Below, one piece after another: positions 3,394 to 37,855 of a stretch of DNA of 64,000 nucleotides. A model generated the notes under the pieces. It was not told the DNA's origin, searched no databases, and worked only from the letters and a program-made list of their open reading frames with translations. The DNA lies in IMG/VR virus record IMGVR_UViG_3300027838_000002, positions 18,980-82,979 of that record. One strand, given 5' to 3'. Both the position numbers and the translations under genes were made by a program. Position 1 is the first letter of the stretch. The number at the start of each line of letters is the position of its first letter. The DNA comes from a virus (lineage: Duplodnaviria; Caudoviricetes).

Positions 3394-3582
3394 TCAAGAT
3401 GCTTTTCTCTTCACCTTTCTGAGTTGATGCGCCTTGCGCATACGGTCCTCAGCGTTATCAGGCACATCACGCGGCTCACCGGTGAATATGTCGCAGTTGC
3501 CGTCTGCGCGCTCTCCATAGAGCAATATCCGGTCGTCGCGGGTTGGATCCTCCGGCAGTGATGGAGCTTTGCTAGTAGCCAT
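3394..3582 (-). CDS. Small hypothetical protein
   Basis: MATSKAPSLPEDP...; ATG coupled to the polymerase stop (TGATG). Confidence 0.55.
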   Translation of the reverse strand: MATSKAPSLPEDPTRDDRILLYGERADGNCDIFTGEPRDVPDNAEDRMRKAHQLRKVKRKAS

Positions 3583-6500
3583 CACTCTTCCTCCTCTATG
3601 AACTGCGCCACCTCGGCCGGACTCAGGGTCTGACCCCAGTAACGACATACATCTACATCAGTGGATAGGTAGTACGGACCTGGTTGCCCTTCCTGCCAAA
3701 GCGTGCCATCGATGTCATTCGGATATACCGGGACATCTTCGGTCATGCACTTGGGCAATACGACTTCACACACTTCCTGCATGTGCCGATACGGCACTTC
3801 AAGAAGGACGGCATCATGAATCTGCAACACGATCCGGTAATCAACATCATGGTGCTTGCGATACTCGTAGAGATTGTGCAGCGCAAGACTCATTGCGTCA
3901 GCCACAAGGGACTGAATCGGGAAGTTCTGCGCCTGCCGTTCTGCCTCGCCGACCTTGGAACGGAGATCCGGAGAAATCTCATAGAAGCGCCTGTACCGCC
4001 CAAAGGCATTACGCAACCACCTCTGATCCGTGGCACGCTCGCGGCATTTGGATAAGAATCCTTCGACGCCGGGATATGTCTCAAAGTAATTGTTGATCAG
4101 TAGCTGCGCTTCAGATTCGACGATATCCACGCCCTCTTCACGACACTGCCGCGCGATTGCAGCTGCGCCACGTCCGTATGGTATCCCGAAGTTCACGTTC
4201 TTCGCCGCAACCCGCATACCGGAAACCCCAGCATCCTTGAGTCCGCTCTTGGTTGGCAGGCAGTCCAGGCGAAACGCACGGACTGCTGCCTGGGAATGGA
4301 TGTCATAGTGGTCGTCATGGACCTCAGGAAGCATGTTCCTGCGTACATGTTCGATGCCAGTGGGGTCATCAGCCAACCACATGATCGCAGCCAGTTCGGC
4401 TCCCGTATAATCAGCCTCCACCAGCAAGTGACCAGGACTGGCCGCAAAGATACTCCGGATTGGATACTCGTACCGCTCACCTATGATGCGGCGGTAATCG
4501 TCTTCACGCCGTTTGCTTATGTTCTGAAGATTGGGGCGTGCCGAAGACGCTCGCCCAGTCTCCAAGATCTGCATCAGGTGCGTGTGGATACGCCCGTCGC
4601 TGCTGACGTGGGACAGAAGACCCTGCTTGTAAATCTTGTCCCCATCATCGTCGAGCTCGGGCAAACCTTGCTCGTCCACCACGGAATGTCGCAAGGTGGT
4701 TTTCAATACCTGGTCCAAGAACCGAATGTCCCGGATCTGCGCAGCAATCGGATGCTGCTGGCCCAGGATACCCAAGGTCTCACGGTTGGTTGATGGGGTG
4801 TGCAGGTGCTCCTCGTTCCGGGTACAAATGTCGTCCCAGCTCTGTGGACGTGCGCCCGTGCTAGTGATGGGCTGCAGATTGAGCGTCACAACGCCGTCAG
4901 GGCGCATCAACTGCTGCGTGCCGTCGGGTAACATCTTGAACGCGTGCCGATCTCCGAACAGGACAGCGCGACAATGATGCGATGACGCAGGATTGAACTC
5001 AGCCCACCCAAGCTCTGCCCGCAACGACTCCACTTCACGAGATTTTGCTTCACTGAACAACCTGATCAAGTGCTCTGCCCGTTCCATGTCTACGAGCAGC
5101 CCACTTTGCTCCATCTCAAGGAAAGCCAGCGATGCCTTGTGACTAGTGGCATAAGCATCTCTGCAGTCATTACCGAACTCATCAGAGTTCAGCTCCTCGT
5201 CGAAGACGGAGTACAGGCGCCTGGTGACGTCTGCGTCGTAGTTAGCGTACGGATGCAAAACCTCTGCAGGACACTCACCGTATCCCTCCATGTCCTTGGC
5301 GGTTATCCCATTCTGTTTACAGTAATCAGTCTTCCACTGCTCCAGCTCCGTGTCGTACCGAGGACACCCAGTACGTCGAACAGCCTGCTCTTCCAGTTTG
5401 AACCTGGTTGTCTCGTGTAGTGCGTGGCACATCAACGATGTGTCAAAGCCATCAGCATATTGCTCACGTAGATCCAGCCCCAGCTTGTGTCTGAGCCATG
5501 GGAGATCCGACCTGAAGAAATGACCACCGACCTTCACGCCAGGTCGAGCAAACAAGCGGCTGAGCTGACGTGCCGCGGCATCAATTGACGGCACAAAGGC
5601 TGATTCCCCGCCTGCATGATTCAGCACGACACACACGGCAAACTTTGACCGGTGTGACCACTGAACGGTACGCAAGTAGGAGTTGGGCTCCCACGGGTAA
5701 TCACCATGCCACTCGGCATCGACCGCGATCACGTCACCACTCGGGTCAGCTAACGCTTCATCCACGAGACGAGCTAGCTCGCGCTCCTTGTACACAACGT
5801 GATGCTCGATATCATCTTCGGCGAAACCAATCGGCTGCCCGTGCGCCAGTGAGTAAAATTGCCTGATCGTGCCCAGCAGTTCATCGTACCTTTCAGGAGT
5901 GTGATGCACGGCAGCAGGGTGTACCGCGGTCATGACACGCGCAGTGTGGTGTTCCGGTGTTGCGCCCAGCTCGTGGGTTGGGAACTCATAGTCCATCACC
6001 CGCCCCTTCATGGCCTCGACGCCGTACCCGCGCCCAAGCAGGCACTTACTCGCTTCGCTGCCAAGACACAGGATGTAATCTGGACGTGTCAGTCGCAGCT
6101 CCTGCTGCAGAATGATCTCACAGTTTTTAACCCACGCAGCAGGCAGTGCCCCGCTGCTGGCCCGCGGACTGACATGGCGTACCACGTTAGTCATGTACCA
6201 CTCGGAAGCTTCTGATTCAGGTATTCCTGCTTCACCAACAGCCTTGTAGAGCGGCTCACTGATGGGGCCAACGAAGTTACGCCTGCCCGTGGGCCAGCTG
6301 ATTGCATTAACGCTCGGCTGCTTACCGATAACCATCACCTTCGGGTAGTGCTCTGAGAGCGCCACCGGCCCGCTCGCCTCCTGCCCCCATGGATGCCCCA
6401 CTACAAAATCAACAACGTGCTGCTGACCCTTGTGCGACACCGTCAGCGCGAACTGACTGTCATACAGCGCCCGCCAGTACAGGTATTTCAGGTATTTGCC

Positions 6501-6716
6501 CGGGTTCGTGATACTACGTTCACTGACCCGTCCTTTTGTGTACGCAGGCTCGGGATCTCCGAGACTCTGCGATGCAGCAATAAAGTCAGGACCAGGGAGC
6601 GGCATCCCAGGGCTGTTTAACGCGTACAATGGGTATTCGTCAAAAAGCCCGTCGACGTCGTCGGCCAACAGCAGTTGCCGAAACTCCGCGTCCAACATGG
6701 GAAACGTCGGTTGCAT
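3582..6716 (-). CDS. polA: Family A DNA polymerase with N-terminal uracil-DNA-glycosylase-like domain and 3'-5' exonuclease
   Basis: UDG family 4-like motifs (VIGKQP, NFVG, YMTNVV, RPDYILCLG, HPAA); Exo I/II/III (AVDAEW, HFFRSDL, YANYD); Pol motifs A ADYTGAEL, B RVAAKNVNFGIPYG, C QIHDAV. Confidence 0.93.
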   Translation of the reverse strand: MQPTFPMLDAEFRQLLLADDVDGLFDEYPLYALNSPGMPLPGPDFIAASQSLGDPEPAYTKGRVSERSITNPGKYLKYLYWRALYDSQFALTVSHKGQQHVVDFVVGHPWGQEASGPVALSEHYPKVMVIGKQPSVNAISWPTGRRNFVGPISEPLYKAVGEAGIPESEASEWYMTNVVRHVSPRASSGALPAAWVKNCEIILQQELRLTRPDYILCLGSEASKCLLGRGYGVEAMKGRVMDYEFPTHELGATPEHHTARVMTAVHPAAVHHTPERYDELLGTIRQFYSLAHGQPIGFAEDDIEHHVVYKERELARLVDEALADPSGDVIAVDAEWHGDYPWEPNSYLRTVQWSHRSKFAVCVVLNHAGGESAFVPSIDAAARQLSRLFARPGVKVGGHFFRSDLPWLRHKLGLDLREQYADGFDTSLMCHALHETTRFKLEEQAVRRTGCPRYDTELEQWKTDYCKQNGITAKDMEGYGECPAEVLHPYANYDADVTRRLYSVFDEELNSDEFGNDCRDAYATSHKASLAFLEMEQSGLLVDMERAEHLIRLFSEAKSREVESLRAELGWAEFNPASSHHCRAVLFGDRHAFKMLPDGTQQLMRPDGVVTLNLQPITSTGARPQSWDDICTRNEEHLHTPSTNRETLGILGQQHPIAAQIRDIRFLDQVLKTTLRHSVVDEQGLPELDDDGDKIYKQGLLSHVSSDGRIHTHLMQILETGRASSARPNLQNISKRREDDYRRIIGERYEYPIRSIFAASPGHLLVEADYTGAELAAIMWLADDPTGIEHVRRNMLPEVHDDHYDIHSQAAVRAFRLDCLPTKSGLKDAGVSGMRVAAKNVNFGIPYGRGAAAIARQCREEGVDIVESEAQLLINNYFETYPGVEGFLSKCRERATDQRWLRNAFGRYRRFYEISPDLRSKVGEAERQAQNFPIQSLVADAMSLALHNLYEYRKHHDVDYRIVLQIHDAVLLEVPYRHMQEVCEVVLPKCMTEDVPVYPNDIDGTLWQEGQPGPYYLSTDVDVCRYWGQTLSPAEVAQFIEEEE

Positions 6717-10198: not shown

Positions 10199-10546
10199 TT
10201 ACACGTACGATTCCGCTCCGAACTGGCTGGGCCAACCACGCTCACTCGCTTCCCTGAAAGCCTCGATGAAGTTCTCTGATGTAAGCCCCTCAGTTGGAGC
10301 GACCTCAGTCTCTTCAAAATCCTCGACGTCGAGTTCACACCAACAATGGTCCGCCGCAGGGTGCGGGAAATTACTTTGATCCGCCCCCGGATGACCCAGG
10401 CTTACATCAGCAGGACAAAAGTAGGCTTCATCATCCAGGTAATCAGCGATATCTTCGAAGCTGACGTCTCCTTCGACGACTACTTCGGCGTACGATTTCC
10501 AGTTATCCGCATCTCTGTACATGTATGAGACATTGGTGTTAGACAT
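10199..10546 (-). CDS. Hypothetical phage protein
   Basis: Acidic 115-aa ORF with YMYRDADNWK and DHCWCE motifs. Confidence 0.65.
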   Translation of the reverse strand: MSNTNVSYMYRDADNWKSYAEVVVEGDVSFEDIADYLDDEAYFCPADVSLGHPGADQSNFPHPAADHCWCELDVEDFEETEVAPTEGLTSENFIEAFREASERGWPSQFGAESYV

Positions 10547-12062
10547 CTGCTACCTCCTGCGCCGAAAGCTTAATCTGCACCCATCCCTTCTTGGCATAGT
10601 TGCGATAACGCTTCTGGCTCTTGTTCTTGAGCGTACGATCAAAGTTATCCATGCAGTCGACTACTATGCCTTTCTGCTTACCTGACTCCTCGTGAATACG
10701 CGCCACACGTCCCGGCGCTTGGGTATCAAGGATTTCACTACCCCGGGCGTCCGCCCTAACCAGCACAGCCAACTGCTCAAAACTCACGCCAGTCGACCAC
10801 ACATCCGTAGCAATCACTTTCTTATACAGCTTGTCTTCGAACCCCATTCGAAGCTCTTCTCGTCGATCAGGGGTGACAGGCTCGTAATCCTCTGGAAGCA
10901 TTCCGTTACGTTGGTAGCGCTCGATATCTTCTGCTTCGATGCTGGCGTAGCAAAGCTCATACTCCGGCAGCTCCTGCCAGAGATAGATCGCATGCTCTAT
11001 GGTTTCCACCAATATCAGCACTTGGTCGTCATCAGCGTAGGAGCGTACGGCGGAGGCGATTAACGCATTCCGATTCGCGTTTCTCCATATCCCATGACGC
11101 TTTTTAGGCACTCCCTCCATTCCGGCGCACGGTGATGCACCCTGAACCGGCAGCCAGATGACTTGGATGGGAACGACAAGACCAAGCTCAGTAGCTTCAG
11201 CCCACGACATCTCAAAGATTTTCGGTCCGAACAGGTATTCCAGCTTGGCATCAGATCCGTCTGCACGGCCTTCGGGCGTAGCTGTCAGGCCGTAATTTCT
11301 GCTCAGCGTATACATCTTAGAGATGGCTGCAGAGTGTTTCGGGCTCATCAGCTCATGGACCTCGTCCGCCAGCAGGATGTCACAATCACCGCTGCTGTGG
11401 TGTAACGAGTCCGCCGTGAACACGGTAACACGTGCCTCTTCCCGTTTGCCGCCGCCGACTTGCCCGACGCTGGGAAGAAACCGCCTCAACGCCCGCACGG
11501 TACGCTGAACGACATCCTTCCGCCTGGTCACGATATGAATCTTGGCCTTCGGGAAAAGCAGGCCCACCATCGCCATCAGGTGAGATTTACCGAACGCCGG
11601 TGGGGCGTCGATGATCCCATATTCGTTCTCCACTATAGCTCGCAAGCACTCTTCCTGGCGTGCACGGAACTCGATGTTCCTGCGTACGTTGTCCCAGTCT
11701 TCCTCGAACGCGTTTACGCGAGGGCTTGGGGGCGTGTAGTCGACAAAATCGATGGTGTACCCGGCCGCGCCCAAGATCGACTGAATTTTCTGCAAGTAGC
11801 CGCAGCAGGTAACGATCTTGTTGTCACGGATACGATACAACTTCGTACGCGTTTGCTTCGTCGTATGACGCTGCCCTGTAACCTCGTCACGTTGTGCGTA
11901 TCCGTACAGGAACTGTACGTACGTATACGTCATCGCTGGACGTAGCAGCGAAAAAACGTGCGATTCCTCGACGGCGCTTCCGTCGGAGTACGACACCTCT
12001 AGCATTGTGCCGTACTTGCGAACCAGTACATCTTGTGTCACGGCATTTAAACTCCACCCCAT
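10539..12062 (-). CDS. Superfamily 2 helicase (UvsW-like)
   Basis: RARQ Q-motif, APPAFGKS, DEVH, TAT, STGVS, QAPGRVAR. Confidence 0.88.
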   Translation of the reverse strand: MGWSLNAVTQDVLVRKYGTMLEVSYSDGSAVEESHVFSLLRPAMTYTYVQFLYGYAQRDEVTGQRHTTKQTRTKLYRIRDNKIVTCCGYLQKIQSILGAAGYTIDFVDYTPPSPRVNAFEEDWDNVRRNIEFRARQEECLRAIVENEYGIIDAPPAFGKSHLMAMVGLLFPKAKIHIVTRRKDVVQRTVRALRRFLPSVGQVGGGKREEARVTVFTADSLHHSSGDCDILLADEVHELMSPKHSAAISKMYTLSRNYGLTATPEGRADGSDAKLEYLFGPKIFEMSWAEATELGLVVPIQVIWLPVQGASPCAGMEGVPKKRHGIWRNANRNALIASAVRSYADDDQVLILVETIEHAIYLWQELPEYELCYASIEAEDIERYQRNGMLPEDYEPVTPDRREELRMGFEDKLYKKVIATDVWSTGVSFEQLAVLVRADARGSEILDTQAPGRVARIHEESGKQKGIVVDCMDNFDRTLKNKSQKRYRNYAKKGWVQIKLSAQEVADV

Positions 12063-12088
12063 ATTGTGCTTACTGGGGTGGAATTGAC

Positions 12089-12117
12089 TTGCCAGGCTCG
12101 CAAATAGCGCTTACAGT
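12089..12117 (+). promoter_or_regulatory. Putative sigma70 promoter driving an antisense small RNA
   Basis: TTGCCA-17 bp-TACAGT. Confidence 0.45.
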
Positions 12118-12122
12118 AAGCG

Positions 12123-12207
12123 TGTGCCTGCACAACCGTCCTCCCAGTGGCAAAATGTAGGGACAACCGAAAGCCTGCCGTTTACCCACGGCAGGCTTTC
12201 TCTTTTA
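12123..12207 (+). ncRNA. Candidate ~85-nt small RNA
   Basis: Lies between the promoter and a plus-strand terminator; no ORF; two ACAACCG copies flank a hairpin. Confidence 0.4.
12169..12207 (+). terminator. Rho-independent terminator (plus strand)
   Basis: GAAAGCCTGCCG/CGGCAGGCTTTC stem followed by TCTTTT. Confidence 0.7.
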
Positions 12208-12219
12208 CATCTACGTATT

Positions 12220-12741
12220 TTACGTCGACTCGACTGGTGACTTACGCACAGTCGTTGGATCTATTGACCGCCTACGCGGCCGAACCTCTTCCACGCGAAA
12301 CGTACCGTAGCCCTCGTCCGGCTTGAACGACGAGATACCCTTGTACGTCCCCGCGACATCCATCAGCTGCCACAAGTCATCCATACTCAACCCATCAGGG
12401 AGCACGCAGTTCACCCCGATGGTGTCGCCAGATAAAAACGCCTCATGGAGGGCGTATCTGGGACGCGCCTCCGGCTTATTTTCCGGCGCCGGGAAATACC
12501 GACGCCATTTTTTAGGGACACCGTCGACGACGGGATCCCATCGAATCCTCTTCACAGCAGACTGGTGACGGCTCAAAACCTTGGCCGCGTATCGTATGAT
12601 ACCCGCCCACCAGGTTGGCAGAAACAGCACTCTGCCCTCGGGGTCGCGCCGCATTGCGAGAATGTGGTTCTTCCCATCAGCCCGTTTGACATCACCCGGG
12701 CAAGGCTGGTTGAACTGAATTCTCACCGTCACTTCTTGCAT
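12220..12741 (-). CDS. Stand-alone RAMP-superfamily (Cas7/Csm3-like) protein
   Basis: N-terminal beta-strand VTVRIQFNQP; RRDPEGRVLFLPTWWAGIIRYAA (cf. RD..G.P.IPGSS.KG.IR); EAFLSGDTI; C-terminal Gly-rich loop GTYKGISSFKPDEGYGTFRV. Confidence 0.6.
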   Translation of the reverse strand: MQEVTVRIQFNQPCPGDVKRADGKNHILAMRRDPEGRVLFLPTWWAGIIRYAAKVLSRHQSAVKRIRWDPVVDGVPKKWRRYFPAPENKPEARPRYALHEAFLSGDTIGVNCVLPDGLSMDDLWQLMDVAGTYKGISSFKPDEGYGTFRVEEVRPRRRSIDPTTVRKSPVEST

Positions 12742-12798
12742 CCCACCGACCCCTTGCGGGTACGAAGCATCCTACCGGTCATCCAAACGAATGTCGAG

Positions 12799-13740
12799 TC
12801 AGTGCTTCTCGGAAAGCATGTGTTTCTTGAAAGCACCAATCTCGGACTCAGACTTGAAGAAATACTCGGGGACAAAAAGACCGTCACCCCCGTGATACAG
12901 CGAGTCCAACCACGTGTGCCGCAAAAATCGCAGAAAGGTCTGCGCGGCACGTAATTGCCCCTTTATCGGATCGGTCGTGGCATGTTTTGCCCATACGCGA
13001 TACACGAAATTGCCCGGCGCCTGCAAACTAGGGTCTGACTGCATCACCGACTCCATGCAACGGTGCCAGCAATCCATCACAATACGACAGCGCGGATTAA
13101 ACTGACGCGACTTATAGGAATGCGCTGCGCCCGAATATGCCATCCGCACATTGTGCACTGTCAATCCGAGGTATGCTTCCAATCGAGCTGTGCGCTCCGG
13201 ATGATGCTGATCGATGTACCAGCGCGGATCACGAATAACAGCAATGAGACGAGCACACGCATGCTGCTCGCTCGACGCAAACGATAGCGCTGGCCAGACA
13301 GGGTGATTATGCAAAATTTGCAAAGATTGGTCTGAGACCTCTCCTCGCCGCTCCTGCACGGCCAACATGTAGGACGGATAGTCATGCGCGCCGAACTGGT
13401 GCCACCCACCCAGGCTAGACGCAAGCATGAAACGCCGAGATCTCACGAGCACAACTTCCGGGTCAGCGCGCTCCGATGCTGAATGACACAGCAGCGGGGT
13501 ACATATATACAACCGAAAGTTGGGGTCGTGGTGCTTCTTCAGATAAACCTCAAGGATTAACTCGGTGTTATCTGGGGTCGCCACGACATGGAACAAGGAA
13601 GACTGCTGGATGCGCGGTGACTGCATAAATTCACGCAGATCACTACCACTACACACCGGCAACTCTTGCCCATCCAGATACCATATGATCCCATCCGTAT
13701 CTGAATGCAATTTAAGGCTGACGTCTAGCGGATTATGCAC
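12799..13740 (-). CDS. Divergent IS110/Nop-domain-like protein
   Basis: HPVWPALSF..ACARLIAVIRDPRWY..TARLEAYLGL resembles the IS110/Nop HhH segment (A.LIAEIGD..RF....L.AY.GL); C-terminal helix RAAQTFLRFLRHTW. Confidence 0.5.
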   Translation of the reverse strand: MHNPLDVSLKLHSDTDGIIWYLDGQELPVCSGSDLREFMQSPRIQQSSLFHVVATPDNTELILEVYLKKHHDPNFRLYICTPLLCHSASERADPEVVLVRSRRFMLASSLGGWHQFGAHDYPSYMLAVQERRGEVSDQSLQILHNHPVWPALSFASSEQHACARLIAVIRDPRWYIDQHHPERTARLEAYLGLTVHNVRMAYSGAAHSYKSRQFNPRCRIVMDCWHRCMESVMQSDPSLQAPGNFVYRVWAKHATTDPIKGQLRAAQTFLRFLRHTWLDSLYHGGDGLFVPEYFFKSESEIGAFKKHMLSEKH

Positions 13741-13751
13741 CAGTTAGTCCC

Positions 13752-15932
13752 CTACAGTTGCACTACGTTATCAAATAGATGGCCTAGTGAATTTTCATGC
13801 GTAATCAGTACACACTGCAAACCACGTGACCCTGACAAATCTCGTAGCTTGCCCAACGCAACCGACAAGCAACCAAGATTGTCGTCGTCCAGGTAAGCCG
13901 TCGGCTCATCCAGACACAACAAGCTGAGATCGTTTGCAAACATCGAATTCACTGCGATCCGGAACGCCAACGCCAACACGACCTTTTGACCGCCCGACAG
14001 ACGCGTCGCCGGTTGAATTCGCCCATCCTCAAACAGAACTTCAAAGCCCATGCCCTCGATAGCGCGAATTTGGTAATCGGTATCAAATAGGGTAAGCAAT
14101 TCGTTGGTATCTGTCTCCAGCAATTCCAGGTAGTTCTGCGCGACGATTCGCGGCAGATTGTCCCGGTGTAGCAGCGTACGCACGGATTCCAGGTGTGTGT
14201 AGAACACGTCCTCATGCGCCAGGCTCGCAGCCGCCTCCTGGGCCTGGGTTAACTGGCTTCGACGACGAGTCACAACCTCGGTGGCGATGGCGGCGTTGTT
14301 GGCCGCCTCGATGCGTCGGTAGTGCTGGCTACGATTATGCGCACATCGCTCCTCTGCCTCCTGGACCTCGTCTTGCGTCATCCGCGCGTGCTCATCACGC
14401 TTACGGGTAATTGCCTCGATCTCGATGAGAAGATCTTCCATTATGCGCTGGGTGTAACCCCTGACTCCAACAGCCTTATCATATTCTCCGGTAAAACTGG
14501 CTGCCAGGATAACCTGCTGATCGTACTCGTCGACGAAAGTCATATTCTCGGATATCTTGTGATGATCGAGGAGTTCGCCGCCTGGCTCAGGTAGCTGGCC
14601 ATACTCTTCCTGATCCCGGTTTGTGGCCTTCTCCCACGAACTTCTCCAGCCGTTCCAACGCACCAGCGCCAGCCTATGCTCGGTGGCGTCGTCAATCTTC
14701 TTCTCGAAATCGGCTAGCTCATTAGATATTTCACCGAGGCGTGTACGTAACTCATCCGCATCCACGTCGATATCGTCCACGTGCGTGCCGCACGTAGGGC
14801 ATTCAGCCTTGTGATGCGCGGACTCCGGGTCAGCGAAATACGCCAGAAGATGATCACACTTTCGCTGCTCTATCTTAAGTTCGTCGATGACAGACAGCGC
14901 ATCAGGGGAAGACAGCTCATCAAGTGGCACCCAGCCTTCAGGAGGAGTCGGCTCAGGGTTAGCTTCCTCTTCCAGGCAGGCAGTATTTATACGCTGCTGA
15001 AGACGCTGCCGTTTATCGTGCTCTGCCCGCAACGACGTCTGCGCGGCCAATACCTCTTTTGTTTCCTCGCACGTCTTTCTGCCCTCATCCACAAGACAGA
15101 CGTAATTATCACGATCTTGCCGCGCACGCGCACAAACTTCCGCCAACCCCAGCAACTCCACTTCGTAACCCTGCAGTTTCTCGTGTTTCCCACCAGCTTC
15201 AACGTCATAACGCGTCCACTGATTGTGTGACGTAATGCGTATCCGGTCAGGATCCTCAGCATCAATGTAGTCACCGGAAATGCCAGGAAATTGGGTTGCC
15301 AGTATGATGTCGCAATTGCCCAGATCACGCTCAGACTCCGCTAGCTCGGACTGTAGGTGGTCCAAGTTAGGAAGAAGCACATGCGATCTGCGTTGCTCGA
15401 TCAAGAACGAGCCCACCGCCTCCCAGCACTTCTCTGCCTGCGAGACGCCGAAAAGCTTTTGAAATGACCGCGCACGCTCTGCAGGCTTTGCGGCCAGGGG
15501 AGCAAATATCTCACCCTGTTCCACAAAGACGTACTGATTGAGCATCTGCGTCGACACGCCGAGCAAGTCGGCAACAGCAGCACTCGCTGCTTTGTCGCCG
15601 CGAATCTTGTCGGCGTGGGAGTAGCTATGGTCAAGCTGAAAATACGACTGCTTGCCACGGAGACCACGTTGAACCGTGGCTGTAGTACCGTTGTGCTCAA
15701 ACTTCAGCTTGACGTAAGACGGCTCATCGTCATCAGCAAACTGGCAGATGTTCTCGACCTTCTTACCATTGGTACGACTGAAGTCACCGGTTAACGCGCC
15801 AAGCGCAGACACCAACAGGTTTGATTTTCCAGAACCGTTATGCCCAAGAAAGGCGTTGAGCCGGTTATGAAATTCAACCTCCTTGTGCCTGTGCTGACAA
15901 AAGTTGTGAACCTCCAGGCTCAGCAATTTCAT
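13752..15932 (-). CDS. SbcC/Rad50-like (gp46-like) ATPase
   Basis: GHNGSGKS, Q-loop VEQG, Zn hook CPTCG, LSGGQ, LDEPT, ITH; long coiled coil. Confidence 0.92.
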   Translation of the reverse strand: MKLLSLEVHNFCQHRHKEVEFHNRLNAFLGHNGSGKSNLLVSALGALTGDFSRTNGKKVENICQFADDDEPSYVKLKFEHNGTTATVQRGLRGKQSYFQLDHSYSHADKIRGDKAASAAVADLLGVSTQMLNQYVFVEQGEIFAPLAAKPAERARSFQKLFGVSQAEKCWEAVGSFLIEQRRSHVLLPNLDHLQSELAESERDLGNCDIILATQFPGISGDYIDAEDPDRIRITSHNQWTRYDVEAGGKHEKLQGYEVELLGLAEVCARARQDRDNYVCLVDEGRKTCEETKEVLAAQTSLRAEHDKRQRLQQRINTACLEEEANPEPTPPEGWVPLDELSSPDALSVIDELKIEQRKCDHLLAYFADPESAHHKAECPTCGTHVDDIDVDADELRTRLGEISNELADFEKKIDDATEHRLALVRWNGWRSSWEKATNRDQEEYGQLPEPGGELLDHHKISENMTFVDEYDQQVILAASFTGEYDKAVGVRGYTQRIMEDLLIEIEAITRKRDEHARMTQDEVQEAEERCAHNRSQHYRRIEAANNAAIATEVVTRRRSQLTQAQEAAASLAHEDVFYTHLESVRTLLHRDNLPRIVAQNYLELLETDTNELLTLFDTDYQIRAIEGMGFEVLFEDGRIQPATRLSGGQKVVLALAFRIAVNSMFANDLSLLCLDEPTAYLDDDNLGCLSVALGKLRDLSGSRGLQCVLITHENSLGHLFDNVVQL

Positions 15933-16414
15933 GCGCTGTTACCTCCCAAGTTCATGGCCCTCCCATACGATTTACCATGAGCACCAACTCCAACAGTTGC
16001 TGGCATGACAGTGTGCTCCAGATTGTACATCACATAGCAGTAATTTCTGAGAAACACCTCGCGATCGTAATCGCTAGTCATCATCAGGATTAATTTCTCC
16101 GCCGTGATCAGGGTCACGCGTGCATAGTACAACCCGTCGTAATACACATGAGAATTACGAATAGGAATAGACGCGGCTACCGGTCGATCCATACTTAACA
16201 CTGACCGTAAATCTTCTGCGCTCAATGCACGCGCCAGATAGACTTTCTCACTCGTTGTAAACTTCTCTCTGTAAGAGAGACTTGCCACCAGCGACCCTGT
16301 TTCAAAGCTGATTTCTCCCCAGGGACCAAGTACGATACCAGTATTATCAAGAGTATGATCGTCATCCGAGTCAGTCGGACGCTGTTTGGGTTTCCTCAGC
16401 AGCAGGTACTGCAT
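15929..16414 (-). CDS. Hypothetical protein
   Basis: 161-aa ORF coupled between the sbcD- and sbcC-like genes. Confidence 0.55.
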   Translation of the reverse strand: MQYLLLRKPKQRPTDSDDDHTLDNTGIVLGPWGEISFETGSLVASLSYREKFTTSEKVYLARALSAEDLRSVLSMDRPVAASIPIRNSHVYYDGLYYARVTLITAEKLILMMTSDYDREVFLRNYCYVMYNLEHTVMPATVGVGAHGKSYGRAMNLGGNSA

Positions 16415-17558
16415 TCATATGTTCCCTACGCATTTTGACAAGAAGTTCCCGCAGATCCGTAATACCGGAGCTAGACAGTAGCCGCATCGCTGTCTGGTAT
16501 TCTGCTGAATCAGGGTCCGCCACCAAACCTAGTGCCCCGGCGAGTCCCTGATCAATAACATCACGACGTGCTTGATCTTCAACTTCTGGCGAGTCTTGCT
16601 CAACCGATACCGGGCTCGTAAACAAGTACGCTTGGTCGCCGACCGTGGCGCGAATGCGGTTGTAGACGTCTGGAATAGTGTCCAAGTACGACACTCGGAG
16701 CAACGGCTTCGCGATAACCGCTGGAAGTGAATCCAGACGCTCGCCCTGGTTTACCAGCACGGACAACTCGTGGAGATCATCCTCGTGCTCAATAGCGACC
16801 TCATCGAAATGTCGAGTTTCCAGATTGTGATGCGACATAGAATGGCCTGGCTCGGACGAAATGTCGCCGTCGCGGAAATGGTAGAAGCACTTGTTGGACG
16901 GCTCGGAGATTGACCGCATGCTAATCGAGCCGGGGGAGTACATAGTGAGCTCATCGACATCCGGACCGGCCGGATAACACGCCTCCGTGTGCTCATGGAA
17001 ATCGCCGGTCAACACATGCTTAATCTGCGGCGCACGTACTAACAGCATGCTGAGCTCACACTCAGAGGGTATCCACCCTCCCATGAACTCCGACCAAACC
17101 TGGTGAGCCACCAGCACCGAGGCCTCGTCAGGAATGTTGTCGAAGGCTTCCTCGATGTGTTCTTTGGGCGTCCAATCAAGCCCGTAGAACGTTGCGCCGT
17201 CGATCTCGAACGTCTGCCCATGCACATGCGTGGGCCACGGATGCACACGCATCCACTCAGGTCGCCCATGATCTTCTCCAAGGTTACGTCGCACGCGCTC
17301 GTGCTGGCCCTGGATGAAGTAGACAGGTAGTCCGTCTTCCTGCATCCTGTCCATCTCCCGGCACATCACGTTGACGCTCACGGGATCCGGATCAGGCTTA
17401 TCGAAAAGGTCGCCACCTGCGATCAACGGCAGCTCGTTCTCGATACAGTAATCAACAATCTGCGCCAAACTGTGGTAGGAATCACCAACCATGGTTGGAT
17501 ACTTCACCCACGTCGTGTAGCTCAGATGCCAGTCAGCACTAAAAACGAAACCTGCGAT
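16371..17558 (-). CDS. SbcD/Mre11-like (gp47-like) metallophosphoesterase nuclease
   Basis: FVFSADWHL (upstream of the track start), GGDLFD, QGQHE, AHQ, GDFH, YSPGS; start proposed at ATC 17558. Confidence 0.88.
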   Translation of the reverse strand: MAGFVFSADWHLSYTTWVKYPTMVGDSYHSLAQIVDYCIENELPLIAGGDLFDKPDPDPVSVNVMCREMDRMQEDGLPVYFIQGQHERVRRNLGEDHGRPEWMRVHPWPTHVHGQTFEIDGATFYGLDWTPKEHIEEAFDNIPDEASVLVAHQVWSEFMGGWIPSECELSMLLVRAPQIKHVLTGDFHEHTEACYPAGPDVDELTMYSPGSISMRSISEPSNKCFYHFRDGDISSEPGHSMSHHNLETRHFDEVAIEHEDDLHELSVLVNQGERLDSLPAVIAKPLLRVSYLDTIPDVYNRIRATVGDQAYLFTSPVSVEQDSPEVEDQARRDVIDQGLAGALGLVADPDSAEYQTAMRLLSSSGITDLRELLVKMRREHMNAVPAAEETQTASD

Positions 17559-17990: not shown

Positions 17991-18185
17991 ATGGGACGAC
18001 TTGTGCTGACTCGTCGACCTAACCAAGCTATTCTGATCGACAACAAGACGACAGTCACTATCATTAGCTGCTCACGGGGCAAAGTACGGCTAGGTATCGA
18101 CGCGCCGCCCAGCGTCCATGTGGTCAGAGACGACGCACACAAAGGTGCCCCTGACCACGAAGACAAATCAGTTAAGCAAGCCTGA
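17991..18185 (+). CDS. csrA: Carbon storage regulator CsrA-like protein
   Basis: LVLTRRPNQAILID...GKVRLGIDAPPSVHVVR; AAGGAG RBS. Confidence 0.88.
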   Translation: MGRLVLTRRPNQAILIDNKTTVTIISCSRGKVRLGIDAPPSVHVVRDDAHKGAPDHEDKSVKQA

Positions 18186-19628
18186 CACCGTTGACGTAGT
18201 GCTGTAATCGTCGAGCTCGTCCACGAGCAACACCTCTCCGTCATGCTGGCGCACGAACTCTGCGCCTGGAATGGCCCCATAAGCATTACTGCTGCCTTTA
18301 ACCAGCGCGTCCGGCTGGATCTCTCGGATCAGAGCCTCGGGCGTGTCTTCGTCGAACCAGGTCACAACGTCGACGAACGGAAGCTGCGCAATCGTTTTTG
18401 CGCGCAGCTCCAGCGACTGAAACGGACGGTCGTCCCCTTTGCCACGCTTGGCGGACGCGTCCGTATTCAGCGCGACTACAAAGTAAGGCCTGTCCAGCAG
18501 TCGGCTAGCCTCACGTAGCAGGTGCATGTGACCCTTGTGCAACAGGTCAAAATGCCCGTTCGTGAACGCGATACTGGCGTCCCTATTACGATGGACAGCC
18601 GCTCTGCGGATAGCTTCGCCTGGCGCACAGATCTTGTCCTCGATCAAACCCGCAGCTAGCTCTTCTTGAGTTACAGGATCCATCCCACGTTTCCTCACGA
18701 AAAGGCCAGCGGCAACATTTGCGTGGTTCACGTCGTCAGTTACTGCGTACGTCGCAGTAACCACATCACCAGCGCCGGAGACATCAACCACAGCTCTCGT
18801 ATCTGCAATAGCAGGGATTTCACCGAACTTATTGATGACGTGCGCCACTCCAGCGGAACCACACGTACAGATAATCTGCTTCCAGTTATAGGCAGACATC
18901 ATCTGTTTGCATGCGTGAAAAATCTCCTGCCGATCGCCATAGAGCTGATACAGCTCAGACTCATTAATCACAACACAATCCGCCCCAATGAATGCCTTGG
19001 CATTCGCGGGCTTTGGCGCTGCGATGATGCGATATTCGTTATTTCTGGCGATAAACTCCGCCGTGGCGGCATGATCTGCGAAGGCACCGCCGTCATAGTC
19101 CACCAGAATCACGGTATCGACGCCTGGCTTACTGTTGCCTTCAGCTCCATACAGATCATCTATGACAGACTGCGCCGCGTTCAACAGTCCGTCCTGTAAC
19201 AACTCTACCTGCTCCGGCAGCTCCCGCTCGCAGTCAAACCGGAACAGGTGCCGCCCGGTAGCAGCCTCAACGTAGCGCGTCTTGGTCGGCACCCTGAACT
19301 GCCTGTTAATACGGACTGGGGCGTACTCCAGACAGAAATCCCGGCCCTGCTGCTTAGCGTAGGCATCAATGCGCTTTTGAGCCTTGAGCGCAACAGCGCC
19401 CACCAAGCTCCCTGTGCCCGTCGGTGCAACCAGGATTGTATTGGCACCCAACATAGCAGCACTCACGGCCACCTGTCCGGCGCCGCCAGGAGTGTATTCA
19501 TCGATATACGCGTCATCTTCGGTACTCCTGCCCACAAGGACGGGCGCTTCAGGGGCAAGACGGCCCACCGTACACTCGACGCGCCGGTCAAGTATCAGAT
19601 CTCCGACCACAAGGATGCTCTTCGGCAC
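18168..19628 (-). CDS. hldE: Bifunctional heptose-7-phosphate kinase / heptose-1-phosphate adenylyltransferase
   Basis: ILVVGDLILD..LAPEAPV, GGAG, DVSGAGD (PfkB kinase); FTNGHFDLLHKGH, ALNTDASAKRGKGDDRP (nucleotidyltransferase). Confidence 0.9.
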   Translation of the reverse strand: MPKSILVVGDLILDRRVECTVGRLAPEAPVLVGRSTEDDAYIDEYTPGGAGQVAVSAAMLGANTILVAPTGTGSLVGAVALKAQKRIDAYAKQQGRDFCLEYAPVRINRQFRVPTKTRYVEAATGRHLFRFDCERELPEQVELLQDGLLNAAQSVIDDLYGAEGNSKPGVDTVILVDYDGGAFADHAATAEFIARNNEYRIIAAPKPANAKAFIGADCVVINESELYQLYGDRQEIFHACKQMMSAYNWKQIICTCGSAGVAHVINKFGEIPAIADTRAVVDVSGAGDVVTATYAVTDDVNHANVAAGLFVRKRGMDPVTQEELAAGLIEDKICAPGEAIRRAAVHRNRDASIAFTNGHFDLLHKGHMHLLREASRLLDRPYFVVALNTDASAKRGKGDDRPFQSLELRAKTIAQLPFVDVVTWFDEDTPEALIREIQPDALVKGSSNAYGAIPGAEFVRQHDGEVLLVDELDDYSTTSTVSGLLN

Positions 19629-22442: not shown

Positions 22443-22479
22443 CACGCTCGCGGCATGGTACTCACGTATACCGTGGTTA
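22443..22479 (-). ncRNA. Solo TIGR-like dual-spacer unit 2
   Basis: Minus strand TAACCA-CGGTATAC-GTGAGTACCA-TGCCGCGA-GCGTG, directly after the Nop-domain gene. Confidence 0.75.
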
Positions 22480-23763
22480 CTCTTCAGAAGCTTCGTCCTC
22501 GGAGTCTTCGTCATCCACTTCCGGTGCCGGTGCCGGTGCCGGACGCGGAGCGTACAAGTCGCTAAGCGGCTTGCCACCCAGGTCGTCCGCAAGCGGGAAG
22601 TGCGGAATAGGGATGGTATGCGTGTGCGTACCATCGCCGTGCTCGATAATAAACGGCTTCGGAGGATCTTCCCCGTTGAGATCCACGTACATCACGTGAT
22701 GTAGATGCGACATGAAGATCTTCACCGCATAACGGCGAGCACGCGCATGAATATGCGCCGGGGCAAGCATTACAACGCCGCTACCAGGTGCGCCCTCGTT
22801 CGTGTTGAGGTACGGCAACCGCTTGGCCTGGTCCAGTGCCAGCACCTTAAGCATGGTGTCTGCGGTGTAACAGCCTTTCATCCACTTGGTAGCATAGGCG
22901 TCATCACTACGCTTCTGCTTCGTCAGGATGCTTACTGCCTGGTCCGAAAACGCACCAGCCATATTACGCTCGACCTCCAGGGCCTTCCGAGCCTGGAACA
23001 AATGGCCGTAATCGCAGTCTTCGTGATTTTGAAACTTCACGAAGCACTCGCCCATCTTGAACGCACAAAGCGACTTAAGCTCAGCGTTCCACGGACGCGC
23101 AGCCAGGTACTTCTCCATAGCAGCATACTTCTTGTACTTGGCAAAGCCATCAGACCAAACCTGCTGCAGCCGGACAGGATTAACGTTACACAGCGACGAC
23201 AACTCCGTAGCCAGCGGTAGCGAAAGGGTGCGCGCGGTCTTTTGCAGGTCGACCTGTTGCAACATGCTCTTCGCTTCCTCTTTGCCGTGCCAAGTGCGGG
23301 ACGGATCCAAGCCAGCGAAGCGCCACCACTTGCCCACGGTGGGAGTATTCCTGATATCCAGGTGCGCCAACAACCCAGCAGTAATCACCGGACCGATACC
23401 GTGATTTGACAAACACCATCGTCCAGCTGCGTACGAGGCAGCAAACTCACCCAGCGCACGCTTGATGTCCTCTTCTGCACGCTTAATATTCGCCAGTCCC
23501 CAACAGATGACCTCGTTAGGCTCAGCGTGCTTCTCAGTCTGCCGCTGCTGGCCCCGAAAACGGATACGCACGTTCTGCATCTGGTAGTACATGTCTACCA
23601 GGAACCGCGCCTCCTCGGATCCAAGTTCCGTAGCGGCTTTCCGCAAATCGCTGTCAAGCCTTTCAAGCAGCTCCCACTGAGACGCATCCACGGTTTGGGC
23701 TTCAGTATTCTCGCTAGCATTATCATCGTGTTCTGGCACATCAGGAAAATAAATTGAGCTCAT
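22477..23763 (-). CDS. IS110-related Nop-domain protein, TasA-like (no RuvC or HNH domain)
   Basis: Coiled coil LVDMYYQMQNVRIR; WCLSNHGIGPVITAGLLAHLD..TVGKWWRFAGLDP; PWNAELK; HIHARARRYAVKIFMSHL; no N-terminal DEDD RuvC domain; adjoins dual-repeat units. Confidence 0.8.
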   Translation of the reverse strand: MSSIYFPDVPEHDDNASENTEAQTVDASQWELLERLDSDLRKAATELGSEEARFLVDMYYQMQNVRIRFRGQQRQTEKHAEPNEVICWGLANIKRAEEDIKRALGEFAASYAAGRWCLSNHGIGPVITAGLLAHLDIRNTPTVGKWWRFAGLDPSRTWHGKEEAKSMLQQVDLQKTARTLSLPLATELSSLCNVNPVRLQQVWSDGFAKYKKYAAMEKYLAARPWNAELKSLCAFKMGECFVKFQNHEDCDYGHLFQARKALEVERNMAGAFSDQAVSILTKQKRSDDAYATKWMKGCYTADTMLKVLALDQAKRLPYLNTNEGAPGSGVVMLAPAHIHARARRYAVKIFMSHLHHVMYVDLNGEDPPKPFIIEHGDGTHTHTIPIPHFPLADDLGGKPLSDLYAPRPAPAPAPEVDDEDSEDEASEE

Positions 23764-26021: not shown

Positions 26022-26391
26022 CACTCCCGCCTTTTGGTACTCTCCGTTCGCTTGGTTGCACGCTCCTGTGTTGGTACTCTCCGCCGCCCTGGTTACACGC
26101 TCGACAAGTGGAACTCGCTCAAGCCATGGTTGCACGCAATGAGGTTGGTACTCGCGGTGATGATGGTTGCACGCATACCTTCTGGTACTCGCAGTCATGC
26201 TGGTTGCACGCCAAAACTTTGGTACTCGCAGCTGGATTGGTTGCACGCGTGGTCTTTGGTACTCGCGAACGACTTGGTTGCACTCCCGTGCTATGGTACG
26301 CGCTCTTGAGTTGGTTGCACGCGGTTCAAATGGTACGCACGCCATCGCTGGTTGCACGCTCATAGTGTGGTACTCGCAGCCGTCACGGTTA
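26022..26391 (-). repeat. TIGR-like dual-repeat array 1 (10 units, 37-nt period)
   Basis: Plus strand alternates TGGTACTCGC and TGGTTGCACGC separated by variable 8-mers; the 10-mer starts at 26035+37n up to 26368. Confidence 0.92.
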
Positions 26392-36517: not shown

Positions 36518-36739
36518 CACGCGCGGTAGTTGGTACTCGCGAGGAGTTTGGTTACACACCAATATCATGGTACTCACTCAGAACTTGGTTGCACGCAGCT
36601 AGCATGGTACTCGCCTCTGCCGTGGTTGCACGTGCTTCTTTTGGCACTCTCCCCGCACCTGGTTGCACATTCCCCTATTGGTACTCTTCTCGAACCTGGT
36701 TGCACGCACGCAGATTGGTACTCGCTCGTGGTTTGGTTA
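36518..36739 (-). repeat. TIGR-like dual-repeat array 2a (6 units)
   Basis: 10-mer at 36531, 36568, 36605, 36642, 36679, 36716. Confidence 0.9.
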
Positions 36740-36835
36740 CTGCTTCCTGCGCCCGTACCTACAGATGATCAGCGTCGTTATCACGACACAGGCACAGATG
36801 AGCAGGGTCTTCAGGACTTCAGGTGAAACACACAT
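36737..36835 (-). CDS. 32-aa single-TM peptide embedded in the array
   Basis: MCVSPEVLKTLLICACVVITTLIICRYGRRKQ; hydrophobic core and basic tail; absent from the ORF track. Confidence 0.55.
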   Translation of the reverse strand: MCVSPEVLKTLLICACVVITTLIICRYGRRKQ

Positions 36836-36976
36836 CTACTATGGTACTCGCAAGTTTTGTGGTTGCACGCATCGATCGTGGTACTCGCGTCGATGGTGGT
36901 TGCACGCGCTTCTTTTGGTACTCGCGCGACGCCTGGTTGCACGCGATACGCATGGTACTCGCTCGATCAATGGTTA
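36829..36976 (-). repeat. TIGR-like dual-repeat array 2b (4 units)
   Basis: 10-mer at 36842, 36879, 36916, 36953. Confidence 0.9.
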
Positions 36977-37596: not shown

Positions 37597-37855
37597 CACG
37601 CTGCTATTGTGGTACTCGCTGATATCATGGTTGCACGCATTTCTATTGGTGCTCGCCCAGGCACTGGTTGCACGCTTGTTTTTTGGTACTCGCGCGGGTC
37701 CAGGTTGCGCGCCGTCTTCATGGTACTCGCTGCTGGATTGGTTGCACGCTGTGATCGTGGTACACGCGGGTCTGTTGGTTGCACTCTGGGACCGTGGTAC
37801 TCGCGCCGAGTTTGGTTGCACGCAGATATGTTGGTACTCACCAATACTATGGTTA
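37597..37855 (-). repeat. TIGR-like dual-repeat array 3 (7 units)
   Basis: 10-mer at 37610+37n up to 37832. Confidence 0.9.

Follow-up and report, generated by a model that had tools for sequence, protein, structure and literature searches.

We find that an uncultured marine giant phage encodes, back to back among its DNA-replication and repair genes, two proteins with predicted folds known from RNA-guided systems. One of them, gB, is a remote relative of TasR in which a RuvC-like fold without nuclease residues is joined to a Nop-type domain, and the other, gA, has in its predicted structure a minimal Cas7/Csm3-type RAMP fold. The two genes, probably co-transcribed, belong to the core genes of a widespread clade of giant marine phages whose genomes are of about 200 kb, and the pair is independent of TIGR arrays. 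Nop-type proteins (TIGR-Tas, IS110, box C/D) and RAMP-type proteins (CRISPR, VIPR) hold the RNA in two distinct RNA-guided lineages, and proteins of the two types working together are not described in the TIGR-Tas and VIPR papers cited here. Our leading and still tentative reading is that gB and gA are a non-catalytic nucleic-acid-binding pair that would serve recombination-dependent replication without arrays.

A conserved gene pair in a replication and repair cluster

The stretch of DNA analysed here, which we refer to as the window, comprises 64,000 nt of the phage genome, and its relevant features are collected in Table 1. Both open reading frames lie on the minus strand where the preliminary description had placed them, gA beginning with ATG and gB with GTG. 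Each belongs to a conserved family (76 database clusters for gA and 26 for gB), and we therefore take both to be genuine genes and not chance open reading frames. Neither was matched among GenBank phages at the DNA or protein level, and no relative of gA was found among 185,579 prokaryote species genomes. Profile searches with both families revealed no paralogue elsewhere in the window, and sequence searches of the PDB with the two family profiles returned nothing meaningful.

Linkage of the two genes in relatives had been named beforehand as a check on their pairing, and gB directly precedes gA in all 55 of the related IMG/VR phage loci examined. Wherever a locus reaches far enough the order is fixed as SbcD-SbcC-gB-gA-SF2 helicase-DnaB-primase-PolA; SbcC neighbours the pair in 54 of the 55 loci and the SF2 helicase follows gA in 54 of the 55, in each case all of those that reach it. 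The genes are also tightly packed. The gap between gB and gA has a median of 5.5 nt and is at most 15 nt in 42 of 56 loci, that between gA and the helicase has a median of 1 nt in relatives, and the pair is probably translationally coupled. Across five relatives the identity is 41-64% for gA and 27-41% for gB, a pace of divergence similar to that of the neighbouring genes.

Could gA and gB nevertheless be functionally unrelated, and be neighbours only through the clade-wide synteny of the replication module? The order of the flanking genes is equally conserved, so that being adjacent does not by itself set the pair apart, and because the whole region is syntenic across one clade we regard the conserved adjacency as a weak sign of functional coupling. 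However, the distances of 1-15 nt from stop to start in most loci are typical of coupled subunits, and two nucleic-acid-binding folds from RNA-guided systems lying side by side would be an odd coincidence. We therefore consider unrelated functions improbable.

Genes for anti-defence tend to be variable and accessory, whereas the pair sits at one fixed place among replication genes in 55 of 55 loci and diverges at much the same rate as its neighbours. These observations make it very improbable that the two proteins are counter-defence decoys, that is, RAMP and Tas look-alikes that sequester the crRNAs or tigRNAs of the host or poison its effector complexes, even though three viral RAMP-like models in BFVD are similar to gA (E<=1e-3) and phages are described as encoding stand-alone RAMPs that are used in conflicts (VIPR, PMC13142463).

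We note that metatranscriptome contigs from two libraries match gA at 100% identity (positions 12347-12695, 12212-12391 and 12548-12738); the runs were picked with the gA region and DNA carry-over is possible, and so these contigs are not counted as evidence of transcription. We also considered a 477-aa protein (P0246), the sole longer protein found, as a fusion of the two genes, as it aligns with gB (5e-52) and then with gA (4e-40). This candidate was rejected: its linker resembles neither family, and the glycine-rich loop is missing from its gA portion. P0246 looks like a frameshift artefact of gene calling, and it offers no support for coupling between gB and gA.

Table 1. Features of the window that bear on the gB/gA pair
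Feature	Position	Strand	Details	Basis
SF2 (ResIII/Helicase_C) DNA helicase	10539..12062	-	directly downstream of gA	Pfam, phrog_16
Post-gA spacer, 157 nt	12063..12219	-	13-bp GC-rich hairpin at 12169-12200, z -2.96	
gA	12220..12741	-	173-aa basic mini-RAMP (predicted); single RRM core; glycine-rich loop (G131-Y133-G135-S137...G146)	ORF and AF2
gB-gA spacer, 57 nt	12742..12798	-	usually 1-15 nt in relatives	
gB	12799..13740	-	313-aa TasR-like protein	ORF, AF2 and VIA-align
SbcC/Rad50-like ATPase	13752..15932	-	ends 11 nt upstream of gB	Pfam AAA_23/SMC_N, phrog_77
SbcD/Mre11-like phosphoesterase	16371..17507	-		Pfam Metallophos, phrog_100; synteny
Canonical TIGR-associated (Tas) protein, 428 aa	22477..23763	-	scores 139 bits (cut-off 100)	NF052498, E 1.6e-40
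Dual-repeat TIGR array	26035..26378	-	37-nt unit, 19 repeat copies; goes with the canonical Tas	
Two dual-repeat TIGR arrays	36531..36963	-	36531-36726 and 36842-36963	
Dual-repeat TIGR array	37610..37842	-	13 repeat copies	

gA is modelled as a minimal RAMP

The AF2 model of gA (pLDDT 90.6) has the secondary structure of an RRM/ferredoxin-like core (beta-alpha-beta-beta-alpha-beta), to which extra beta-hairpins are added at residues 18-29, 67-82 and 96-114, these being candidates at most for the thumb with which Cas7-like RAMPs intercalate into the duplex of guide and target. A RAMP (Cas7-like) fold had been proposed for this protein, with structural comparison as the check named in advance, and the model bears the proposal out. 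In VIA-align gA reaches Z scores of 12.4 with Cmr, 11.2 with Csm3 and 11.1 with gRAMP entries, the best 26 rows all being CRISPR effectors, and a Foldseek search of the PDB gave 154 matches at E<=1e-3, the best of which are Cas7, Csm3, Cmr4 and gRAMP with a probability of 1.00. The curated RAMP and Cas models of Pfam and NCBIfam match none of the 44 members of the gA family.

The glycine-rich loop to which the preliminary description had drawn attention lies where the RAMP loop is expected: GISSFKPDEGYGTF spans residues 135-148, between the helix at 120-133 and the last strand at 148-155 of the model. Within it G135, S137, G146 and F148 are invariant in all 44 aligned sequences of the family, as are R81, H99, E100, G131 and Y133 outside it. 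The family is basic throughout, with a median pI of 9.7 and a net charge of +8. The loop after strand 1, which we take to be the site of the catalytic Asp in Csm3 and Cmr4, holds no conserved acidic residue in gA, where position 17 varies and falls below the conservation filter.

The invariant His99-Glu100 could mark gA as a Cas6-like metal-independent endoribonuclease, or gA could be an RNA chaperone, within a module for RNA processing or RNP assembly in which gB would be the RNA-positioning partner, with the RNA of primers, the transcripts in R-loops and, in the present genome, pre-tigRNA as candidate substrates. The invariance of R81, Y133 and S137 is in keeping with such a module, Cas6 chains do appear among the structural matches of gA at lower Z (about 6.0-7.0), and for some TIGR systems the RNase that matures the RNAs is said not to be known (PMC12045711). 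We nevertheless give this alternative little credence, as the best matches of gA are of the backbone Cas7/Csm3/Cmr4 type and not Cas6, and as the pair is also present in phages without arrays.

gB resembles TasR but has lost the RuvC catalytic residues

The AF2 model of gB (pLDDT 92.7, pTM 0.90) comprises an RNase H/RuvC-like domain (residues about 1-110) followed by a helical Nop-type domain (about 111-313). This agrees with the Nop/IS110-like architecture suggested at the outset, for which a structural check had likewise been named, and it places gB closest to TasR: the best VIA-align match is TasR 9mty_B, with a Z of 11.4 over 230 aligned residues that cover both domains (gB residues 7-305). 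Matches to TasH (Z 9.0, 8.8 and 8.7) cover gB residues about 118-308, those to IS110-family recombinases reach Z 7.5-7.8 over 234-239 residues, and the best 7 entries are all Tas or IS110; Nop5 chains are absent among the structural matches listed. At the level of sequence, NF052498, the NCBIfam model of TIGR-Tas, is weakly matched by 18 of the 25 gB-family members (E<=1; best 5.4e-7), and the gB of the window scores 15.5 bits (E 0.013), which does not reach the family cut-off of 100 bits. It thus gave no match to this model at E<=0.01; a profile comparison with the canonical Tas of the same genome found no similarity (hhalign, probability 0.15%), and its best score in the ESM Atlas was 0.85, nothing usable.

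The RuvC-like domain has kept its fold and not its catalytic acids. The LDVS motif, in which a faint likeness to the first RuvC strand had been seen, is indeed present at residues 5-8, but it is not a motif of the family, as no more than 3 of the 25 sequences have Asp at the position of D6. At D14, the expected first RuvC Asp, 14 of the 25 family sequences have Asp and 8 have Ala, and no column among residues 1-110 holds at least 80% D/E. A Nop protein with RuvC, which had been named earlier as one option, is thus supported as far as the fold is concerned; since no acidic residue is conserved in this domain, the alignment makes it unlikely that gB is a nuclease. We note that the longest helix in the model has 24 residues (258-281), and that no long helical hairpin is evident.

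The pair is independent of TIGR arrays

The genome also encodes a canonical Tas protein (phmmer 1.2e-8 against TaTasR 9mty_A) and five dual-repeat TIGR arrays with 66 repeat copies, four of the arrays in the window and the fifth outside it. The canonical Tas and these arrays are a separate accessory system of the genome and are not part of the gB/gA pair. The 37-nt dual-repeat TIGR arrays are the only arrays of the window; as the preliminary description had it, there are no further cas genes and no CRISPR array, no cas family of Pfam or NCBIfam being found among the proteins scanned and the repeat scan showing no array of the CRISPR type. A 205-aa gene between TIGR arrays is a C92 peptidase, and proteins of ~230 aa that adjoin the arrays, which we considered as possible paralogues of gB, are unrelated to gB and to each other.

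Five relatives that carry both gA and gB, three of them 100% complete, have no TIGR array detectable by TRF or by a k-mer chain detector, each of which recovers three of the five arrays of the present genome and would overlook single guide RNAs and guides of the stem-loop kind. Judged from these five relatives, guide arrays are missing in most members of the clade that bears the pair. No homologue of the canonical Tas is present in the five relatives or in the 55 loci, and the exact TIGR repeat pattern occurs in IMG/VR in 32 stretches, mostly single chance-like matches, none of which is on a contig that bears the pair. The pair had been thought to act on tigRNA-like guides or on an adjacent small RNA, and neither idea is supported by comparison with relatives: five of them keep gA and gB with neither TIGR arrays nor canonical Tas, and nothing similar to the 157-nt spacer that follows gA was seen between genes of the 55 related loci, in most of which the genes abut. 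The hairpin in this spacer is probably the terminator of the operon. None of the four intergenic regions that the window has between positions 2001 and 24000 has a look-alike in the 55 loci, and the window holds no Rfam family and no tRNA.

These results bear on the alternative that gB and gA are a genuine effector that targets DNA under RNA guidance, with a guide encoded at another place or in an undetected form, such as a single stem-loop, a guide inside coding sequence, or tigRNAs from the canonical arrays of this genome. Under this alternative gB would bind motifs of the box C/D kind and gA would coat the guide or present it, with SbcCD or the helicase acting on the bound target. Each of the two folds serves to hold guide RNA in every relative that has been characterised (PMC12045711, PMC13142463) and this genome does have TIGR arrays; furthermore, according to the 2026 TIGRFinder preprint, catalytically dead TasR still binds DNA via RNA guides, some guides sit inside tas coding sequences, and the "alternative guide RNA source" of an array-less compact TasR branch is left open (10.64898/2026.09.09.750476). 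On the other hand, five relatives have the pair and neither dual-repeat arrays nor canonical Tas, no conserved non-coding region was found beside the pair, and Rfam matches are lacking in the window. Nor does the secondary structure of the gB model show an evident long coiled coil, of the kind that in Tas is described as mediating a dimer that reads two spacers (10.64898/2026.09.09.750476), and it would be unusual for a conflict system to sit, as a core gene, inside a replisome cluster. We consider an RNA-guided effector of this kind somewhat unlikely.

A possible role in recombination-dependent replication

According to the reading that we tentatively favour, gB and gA would be produced along with SbcCD and the SF2 helicase, and together they would work on the intermediates that arise in recombination-dependent replication. 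With its RRM face and glycine-rich loop gA would bind a single strand, which could be resected ssDNA or else RNA from an R-loop or a primer, and gB would keep hold of the duplex, hybrid or branch next to it. The two proteins may bind one another, and no array-encoded guide would be needed. Because relatives are without guide-RNA arrays, we think a role in handling replication or recombination intermediates more likely than classical RNA-guided targeting. An RNA-free role would be a departure, since every characterised member of the two folds (Tas, IS110 and Nop5; Cas5/6/7 and Vipr) works with RNA. We note that a search of the three complete relatives detected no SSB of the bacterial type (PF00436), which within the reach of that search leaves the role of single-strand binding vacant; a search for gp32-type SSB gave zero matches anywhere, controls included, and is uninformative. 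The SSBs of phages often escape recognition, and we give the missing SSB little weight.

A further possibility, and in our judgement an unlikely one, is a third RNA-guided or RNA-templated machine, in which Nop-type and RAMP-type proteins in one complex would use RNA from outside arrays (transcripts, an R-loop or a primer), marking specific DNA sites for SbcCD and the SF2 helicase. If this were true, the initiation of phage replication, or recombination itself, would be RNA-directed, and the pair would be a living link from the TIGR/IS110/box C/D lineage to the CRISPR/VIPR RAMP lineage. More generally, should gB and gA form a complex, DNA replication or recombination may have co-opted their folds, a finding that would bear on the origin of guide-binding proteins; alternatively, the complex may answer the question, posed in the TIGRFinder preprint, of where array-less compact TasR obtains its guides. 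The genome is also useful experimentally, as it holds a canonical Tas with five arrays alongside the array-less pair and so permits a comparison of the two against the same RNAs.

Comparison with known systems

gA shares the RRM core and the glycine-rich loop before the last strand with RAMPs of the Cas7 family (Csm3, Cmr4, type VII Cas7 and the domains of gRAMP/Cas7-11), with which its model aligns at Z 10-12.4 over 125-158 residues. It differs from them in its small size, in matching none of them by sequence, and in having no other cas gene or CRISPR array for company. The VIPR system, as described, consists of a stand-alone viral RAMP (Vipr), an accessory protein (Vap) and a vrRNA (PMC13142463, 10.64898/2026.04.26.720927). 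Like gA, Vipr is a phage-encoded minimal RAMP that has no second RRM and lies beside one DNA-interacting accessory gene (PMC13142463); it is reported to bind RNA via its G-loop and RRM. The vrRNA near vipr is reported to have 9-16 YNNGG (GGY/NN) tandem repeats, and "related consensus" variants are also mentioned in the VIPR preprint. Using a scanner that had no positive control, we found no GGY-NN tract of at least 7 phased units in the 83-kb record (G000) or in the complete relatives G003 and G004, one marginal match of 6 of 7 units in the third complete relative (G005), and no such tract in the spacer after gA. VIPR loci are minimal with long intergenic flanks, whereas gB, gA and the helicase gene lie almost end to end; the pair moreover belongs to a core replication operon and not to a small conflict island, and the neighbour of the RAMP gene is Tas-like. 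The term Nop is absent from the main text of the VIPR discovery preprint, and it is by published description that we set gA apart from Vipr.

TasR has the same succession of a RuvC-like N-terminal and a Nop-type C-terminal domain as gB, a likeness echoed by the weak, recurrent matches of the gB family to NF052498, and PateTasR and CsTasR are reported to have lost the RuvC catalytic residues as gB has (10.64898/2026.09.09.750476). The same preprint mentions an array-less "divergent tas clade" of TasR, to which we liken gB by description only, and does not mention a RAMP partner for it in its main text, from which, as from that of Faure et al. 2025 (PMC12045711), the words RAMP, Cas7 and SbcC are absent. 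Unlike TasR, gB lies far below the NF052498 cut-off, belongs to a family that is not array-associated, and is fixed in a replication and recombination operon with a RAMP gene always next to it. Both domains of gB also align with those of the IS110 bridge-RNA recombinases (IS621, ISCro4). In contrast to these, however, gB has unconserved DEDD acids, no IS ends and no non-coding flank, and it is not mobile, as it keeps one place in 55 loci whose genes abut.

Lastly, gB can be compared with the archaeal and eukaryotic box C/D protein Nop5 (Nop56/58), in which an inactive RuvC-like N-terminal domain is likewise joined to a Nop domain. gB differs in that its model shows no evident coiled coil, and no fibrillarin or L7Ae homologues were seen. 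The N-terminal domain of Nop5 is described as recruiting a partner protein, fibrillarin (PMC12045711), and by analogy gB might recruit gA in the same manner.

Results

Both the mini-RAMP gene (gA) and the TasR-like gene (gB) were found as minus-strand open reading frames at the positions that the preliminary description had assigned to them. In the window gB lies 11 nt from the end of SbcC, 57 nt separate gB from gA, and a 157-nt spacer carrying a 13-bp hairpin lies between gA and the SF2 helicase gene. Neither gene was matched in Pfam, in NCBIfam at E ≤ 0.01, among GenBank phages or among PDB sequences, and all of their PHROGs matches were insignificant (E 0.04 or weaker). Despite the lack of Pfam, NCBIfam and GenBank matches, gA and gB each have a conserved family, of 76 and 26 database clusters respectively, and, judged by this conservation, are real genes. 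When 1.84 billion representatives were scanned in full with HMMER, 222 gA clusters scored E ≤ 1e-3, and the top 150 of these range in length from 60 to 259 aa.

Positions of the gene pair and of the TIGR-Tas features (window coordinates unless marked G000, the whole 82,979-bp record)
Feature	Position	Strand	Description
gA	12220-12741	minus	ORF, 173 aa, ATG start
gB	12799-13740	minus	ORF, 313 aa, GTG start
Canonical Tas	22477-23763		NF052498, E 1.6e-40, 139 bits
TIGR array	26035-26378		dual-repeat
TIGR array	36531-36726		dual-repeat
TIGR array	36842-36963		dual-repeat
TIGR array	37610-37842		dual-repeat
TIGR array	G000:8921-9227, outside window		dual-repeat

Predicted structures of the two proteins

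The AlphaFold2 model of gA (44-sequence alignment; pLDDT 90.6, pTM 0.81) gave 154 Foldseek matches to the PDB at E ≤ 1e-3, headed by chains of type VII Cas7, Csm3, Cmr and gRAMP, the best at E 5.5e-7 with probability 1.00. In a second, independent structural scan (all-against-representatives), CRISPR effector entries filled all of the first 26 rows, with Z scores of 12.4 for a Cmr-beta chain (151 residues aligned, rmsd 3.3), 11.2 for Csm3, 11.1 for gRAMP and 10.0 for type VII Cas7; the top non-CRISPR row was an RNase P protein at Z 7.5. Three viral models in BFVD resemble gA at E ≤ 1e-3, and one of these bears the name RAMP superfamily protein. The C-terminal Gly-rich motif, noted previously as RAMP-like, is placed by the model after the second helix and before the last strand as the RAMP glycine-rich loop, and its residues G131, Y133, G135, S137 and G146 are invariant in 44/44 sequences. 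gA proteins are basic across the whole family, with a median pI of 9.7 and a net charge of +8. None of the 44 members matches a RAMP family in Pfam or NCBIfam, so the assignment is a purely structural one: gA is a RAMP by its predicted fold.

For gB the model (pLDDT 92.7, pTM 0.90) predicts a beta-beta-beta-alpha-beta-alpha-beta domain at residues ~1-110, followed by a C-terminal domain that is helical. With Foldseek nothing reached E ≤ 1e-3, and the best row was TIGR-TasR (E 0.05, probability 0.97). VIA-align matched gB best to TasR (9mty_B, Z 11.4, 230 residues aligned, spanning residues 7-305), to three TasH entries over residues ~118-308 (Z 9.0, 8.8 and 8.7) and, over both domains, to the IS110-family recombinases ISCro4 and IS621 (Z 7.5-7.8), which bears out the IS110/Nop-like character first suggested for gB. 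Lower rows, covering the N-terminal domain only, were RNase H-like folds, among them Spt6 YqgF, poxvirus resolvase, RuvX and RuvC (Z ~5.4-7.4). The sequence evidence for a TasR-like protein agrees weakly with the fold: 18/25 members of the gB family match NF052498, the NCBIfam TIGR-Tas endonuclease model, at E ≤ 1 (best E 5.4e-7), and the window's own gB scores 15.5 bits (E 0.013, residues 141-221) against a family cut-off of 100 bits.

We find no alignment column with at least 80% Asp/Glu within gB residues 1-110. D14, at the end of strand 1, is Asp in 14/25 and Ala in 8/25 members, and the Asp (D6) of the LDVS motif, which had been likened to the first RuvC strand, is Asp in only 3/25, so that LDVS is not a motif of the family. 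We therefore read the RuvC-like domain as catalytically inactive, and gB as a putative nuclease-dead TasR-like protein. Its invariant residues concentrate in the Nop-like part (GGWH 111-114, H146, DPRWY 171-175, R248, W277 and FF 294-295).

Linkage of the pair and its independence of dual-repeat TIGR arrays

An IMG/VR pattern scan with the gA alignment gave 55 related loci on contigs of up to 224 kb. As the proposed pairing implied, gB lies immediately upstream of gA in 55/55, and as far as each locus extends the gene order is SbcD-SbcC-gB-gA-helicase-DnaB-primase-PolA. Between gB and gA the median distance is 5.5 nt (≤15 nt in 42/56 loci), and between gA and the helicase gene it is 1 nt (≤22 nt in 44/55). 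Because the order is fixed and the distances are short, the pair is a compact core component of the replication/recombination module; since the whole module is syntenic, adjacency alone is no proof of shared function. An apparent gB-gA fusion (P0246, NCBI-sourced, 477 aa) on a 3251-bp contig diverges from both families in its linker and C-terminus and is probably an artefact, most likely of two frameshifts in a short contig. Separately, one sub-clade of relatives conserves a stretch ~7 kb upstream of gA that is non-coding or contains a small ORF (2678-2955 of related locus L007, with counterparts in ~24 loci); the window lacks it.

Five related records, three of them rated 100% complete (CheckV), were compared whole. 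All five carry gA and gB. No TIGR array was found in them by TRF or by a k-mer chain detector, each of which recovers 3/5 arrays of the present genome, and canonical Tas had no tblastn match in these relatives or in the 55 loci. Because the five relatives keep the pair without either, the gB-gA pair is independent of dual-repeat arrays and canonical Tas, and the TIGR system of this genome is separate from it.

The TIGR-Tas system of the same genome

The canonical Tas gene, the first Nop gene implied by the preliminary description, also matches TaTasR (phmmer, 1.2e-8). Its profile match begins at residue 52, and therefore no N-terminal nuclease domain is evident. The window arrays have a 37-nt period with two alternating repeats and spacers of ~9 nt; the full record has 66 repeat copies in five array clusters. 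On the minus strand each of the two repeats finishes with CCA, which corresponds to what PMC12045711 describes as the "box C" end of tigRNA repeats, and we infer the minus strand for the arrays. The five arrays are scattered over ~48 kb, with Tas 2-14 kb from its arrays; an unrelated C92 peptidase gene (36974-37591) sits between two of the arrays, and an HNH/NUMOD4 homing-endonuclease-like gene with an HTH (24985-25641) lies between a dCMP deaminase gene and the first array. Within that array (26054-26155), units are joined or replaced in DNA contigs from other seawater runs, with a skip of 43 nt and 6 other letters, which suggests that spacers or units turn over from strain to strain, or that arrays sharing a leader were mis-assembled with one another.

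Habitat and other genes

The region was found in marine/seawater metagenome runs (20 rows, 17 studies), 6 rows being possibly the source of this DNA. RNA-library contigs overlie gA and are not counted as proof of transcription. A 1044-aa family A DNA polymerase (3582-6716) has a uracil-DNA-glycosylase-superfamily domain at its N-terminus as well as a 3'-5' exonuclease domain. A PfkB kinase-cytidylyltransferase fusion (HldE/RfaE-like, 18168-19628) and a family 9 heptosyltransferase (54185-55375) together look like a phage ADP-heptose pathway, possibly serving glycosylation of the virion, DNA or host surface. An 849-aa collagen-like repeat protein (55351-57900) and a 1773-aa ORF at the window end (58582-63903) are presumably structural or fibre genes.

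Discussion

We tentatively propose that gB and gA form an array-independent, non-catalytic nucleic-acid-binding pair serving recombination-dependent replication. The basic RAMP gA would bind single-stranded nucleic acid, resected ssDNA or else R-loop/primer RNA, with the dead-RuvC/Nop protein gB holding the duplex, hybrid or branch next to it; both would be made together with SbcCD and the helicase. No PF00436 SSB was detected in this record or in the three complete relatives, with 10/14 control genomes positive, which hints at an unfilled single-strand-binding role; a search for gp32-type SSB was silent everywhere, controls included.

The main rival, that the pair is a genuine RNA-guided effector whose guide went undetected, seems to us less likely. 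The TIGRFinder preprint (10.64898/2026.09.09.750476) describes "one long phylogenetic branch" of compact TasR proteins, whose guide source its authors regard as an open question, and gB fits this description, so that it may belong to that branch. Our literature search found no paper on the gB-gA pairing; the words RAMP, Cas7 and SbcC are absent from the main text of that preprint and of the Science paper (PMC12045711), and "Nop" and "SbcC" from the VIPR discovery preprint.

Stand-alone RAMPs of viruses (Vipr), accompanied by an accessory gene and by vrRNAs of YNNGG repeats, are described in two 2026 preprints on VIPR (PMC13142463 and companion). A scan run without a positive control found no instance of at least seven phased GGY-NN units in this record and two complete relatives, and one marginal match in the third. 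The spacer after gA has a terminator-like hairpin, no GGY-NN-type repeats and no look-alike in the 55 loci. As a viral RAMP that stands alone, gA is comparable to Vipr, but the RNA and locus features that define VIPR were not found.
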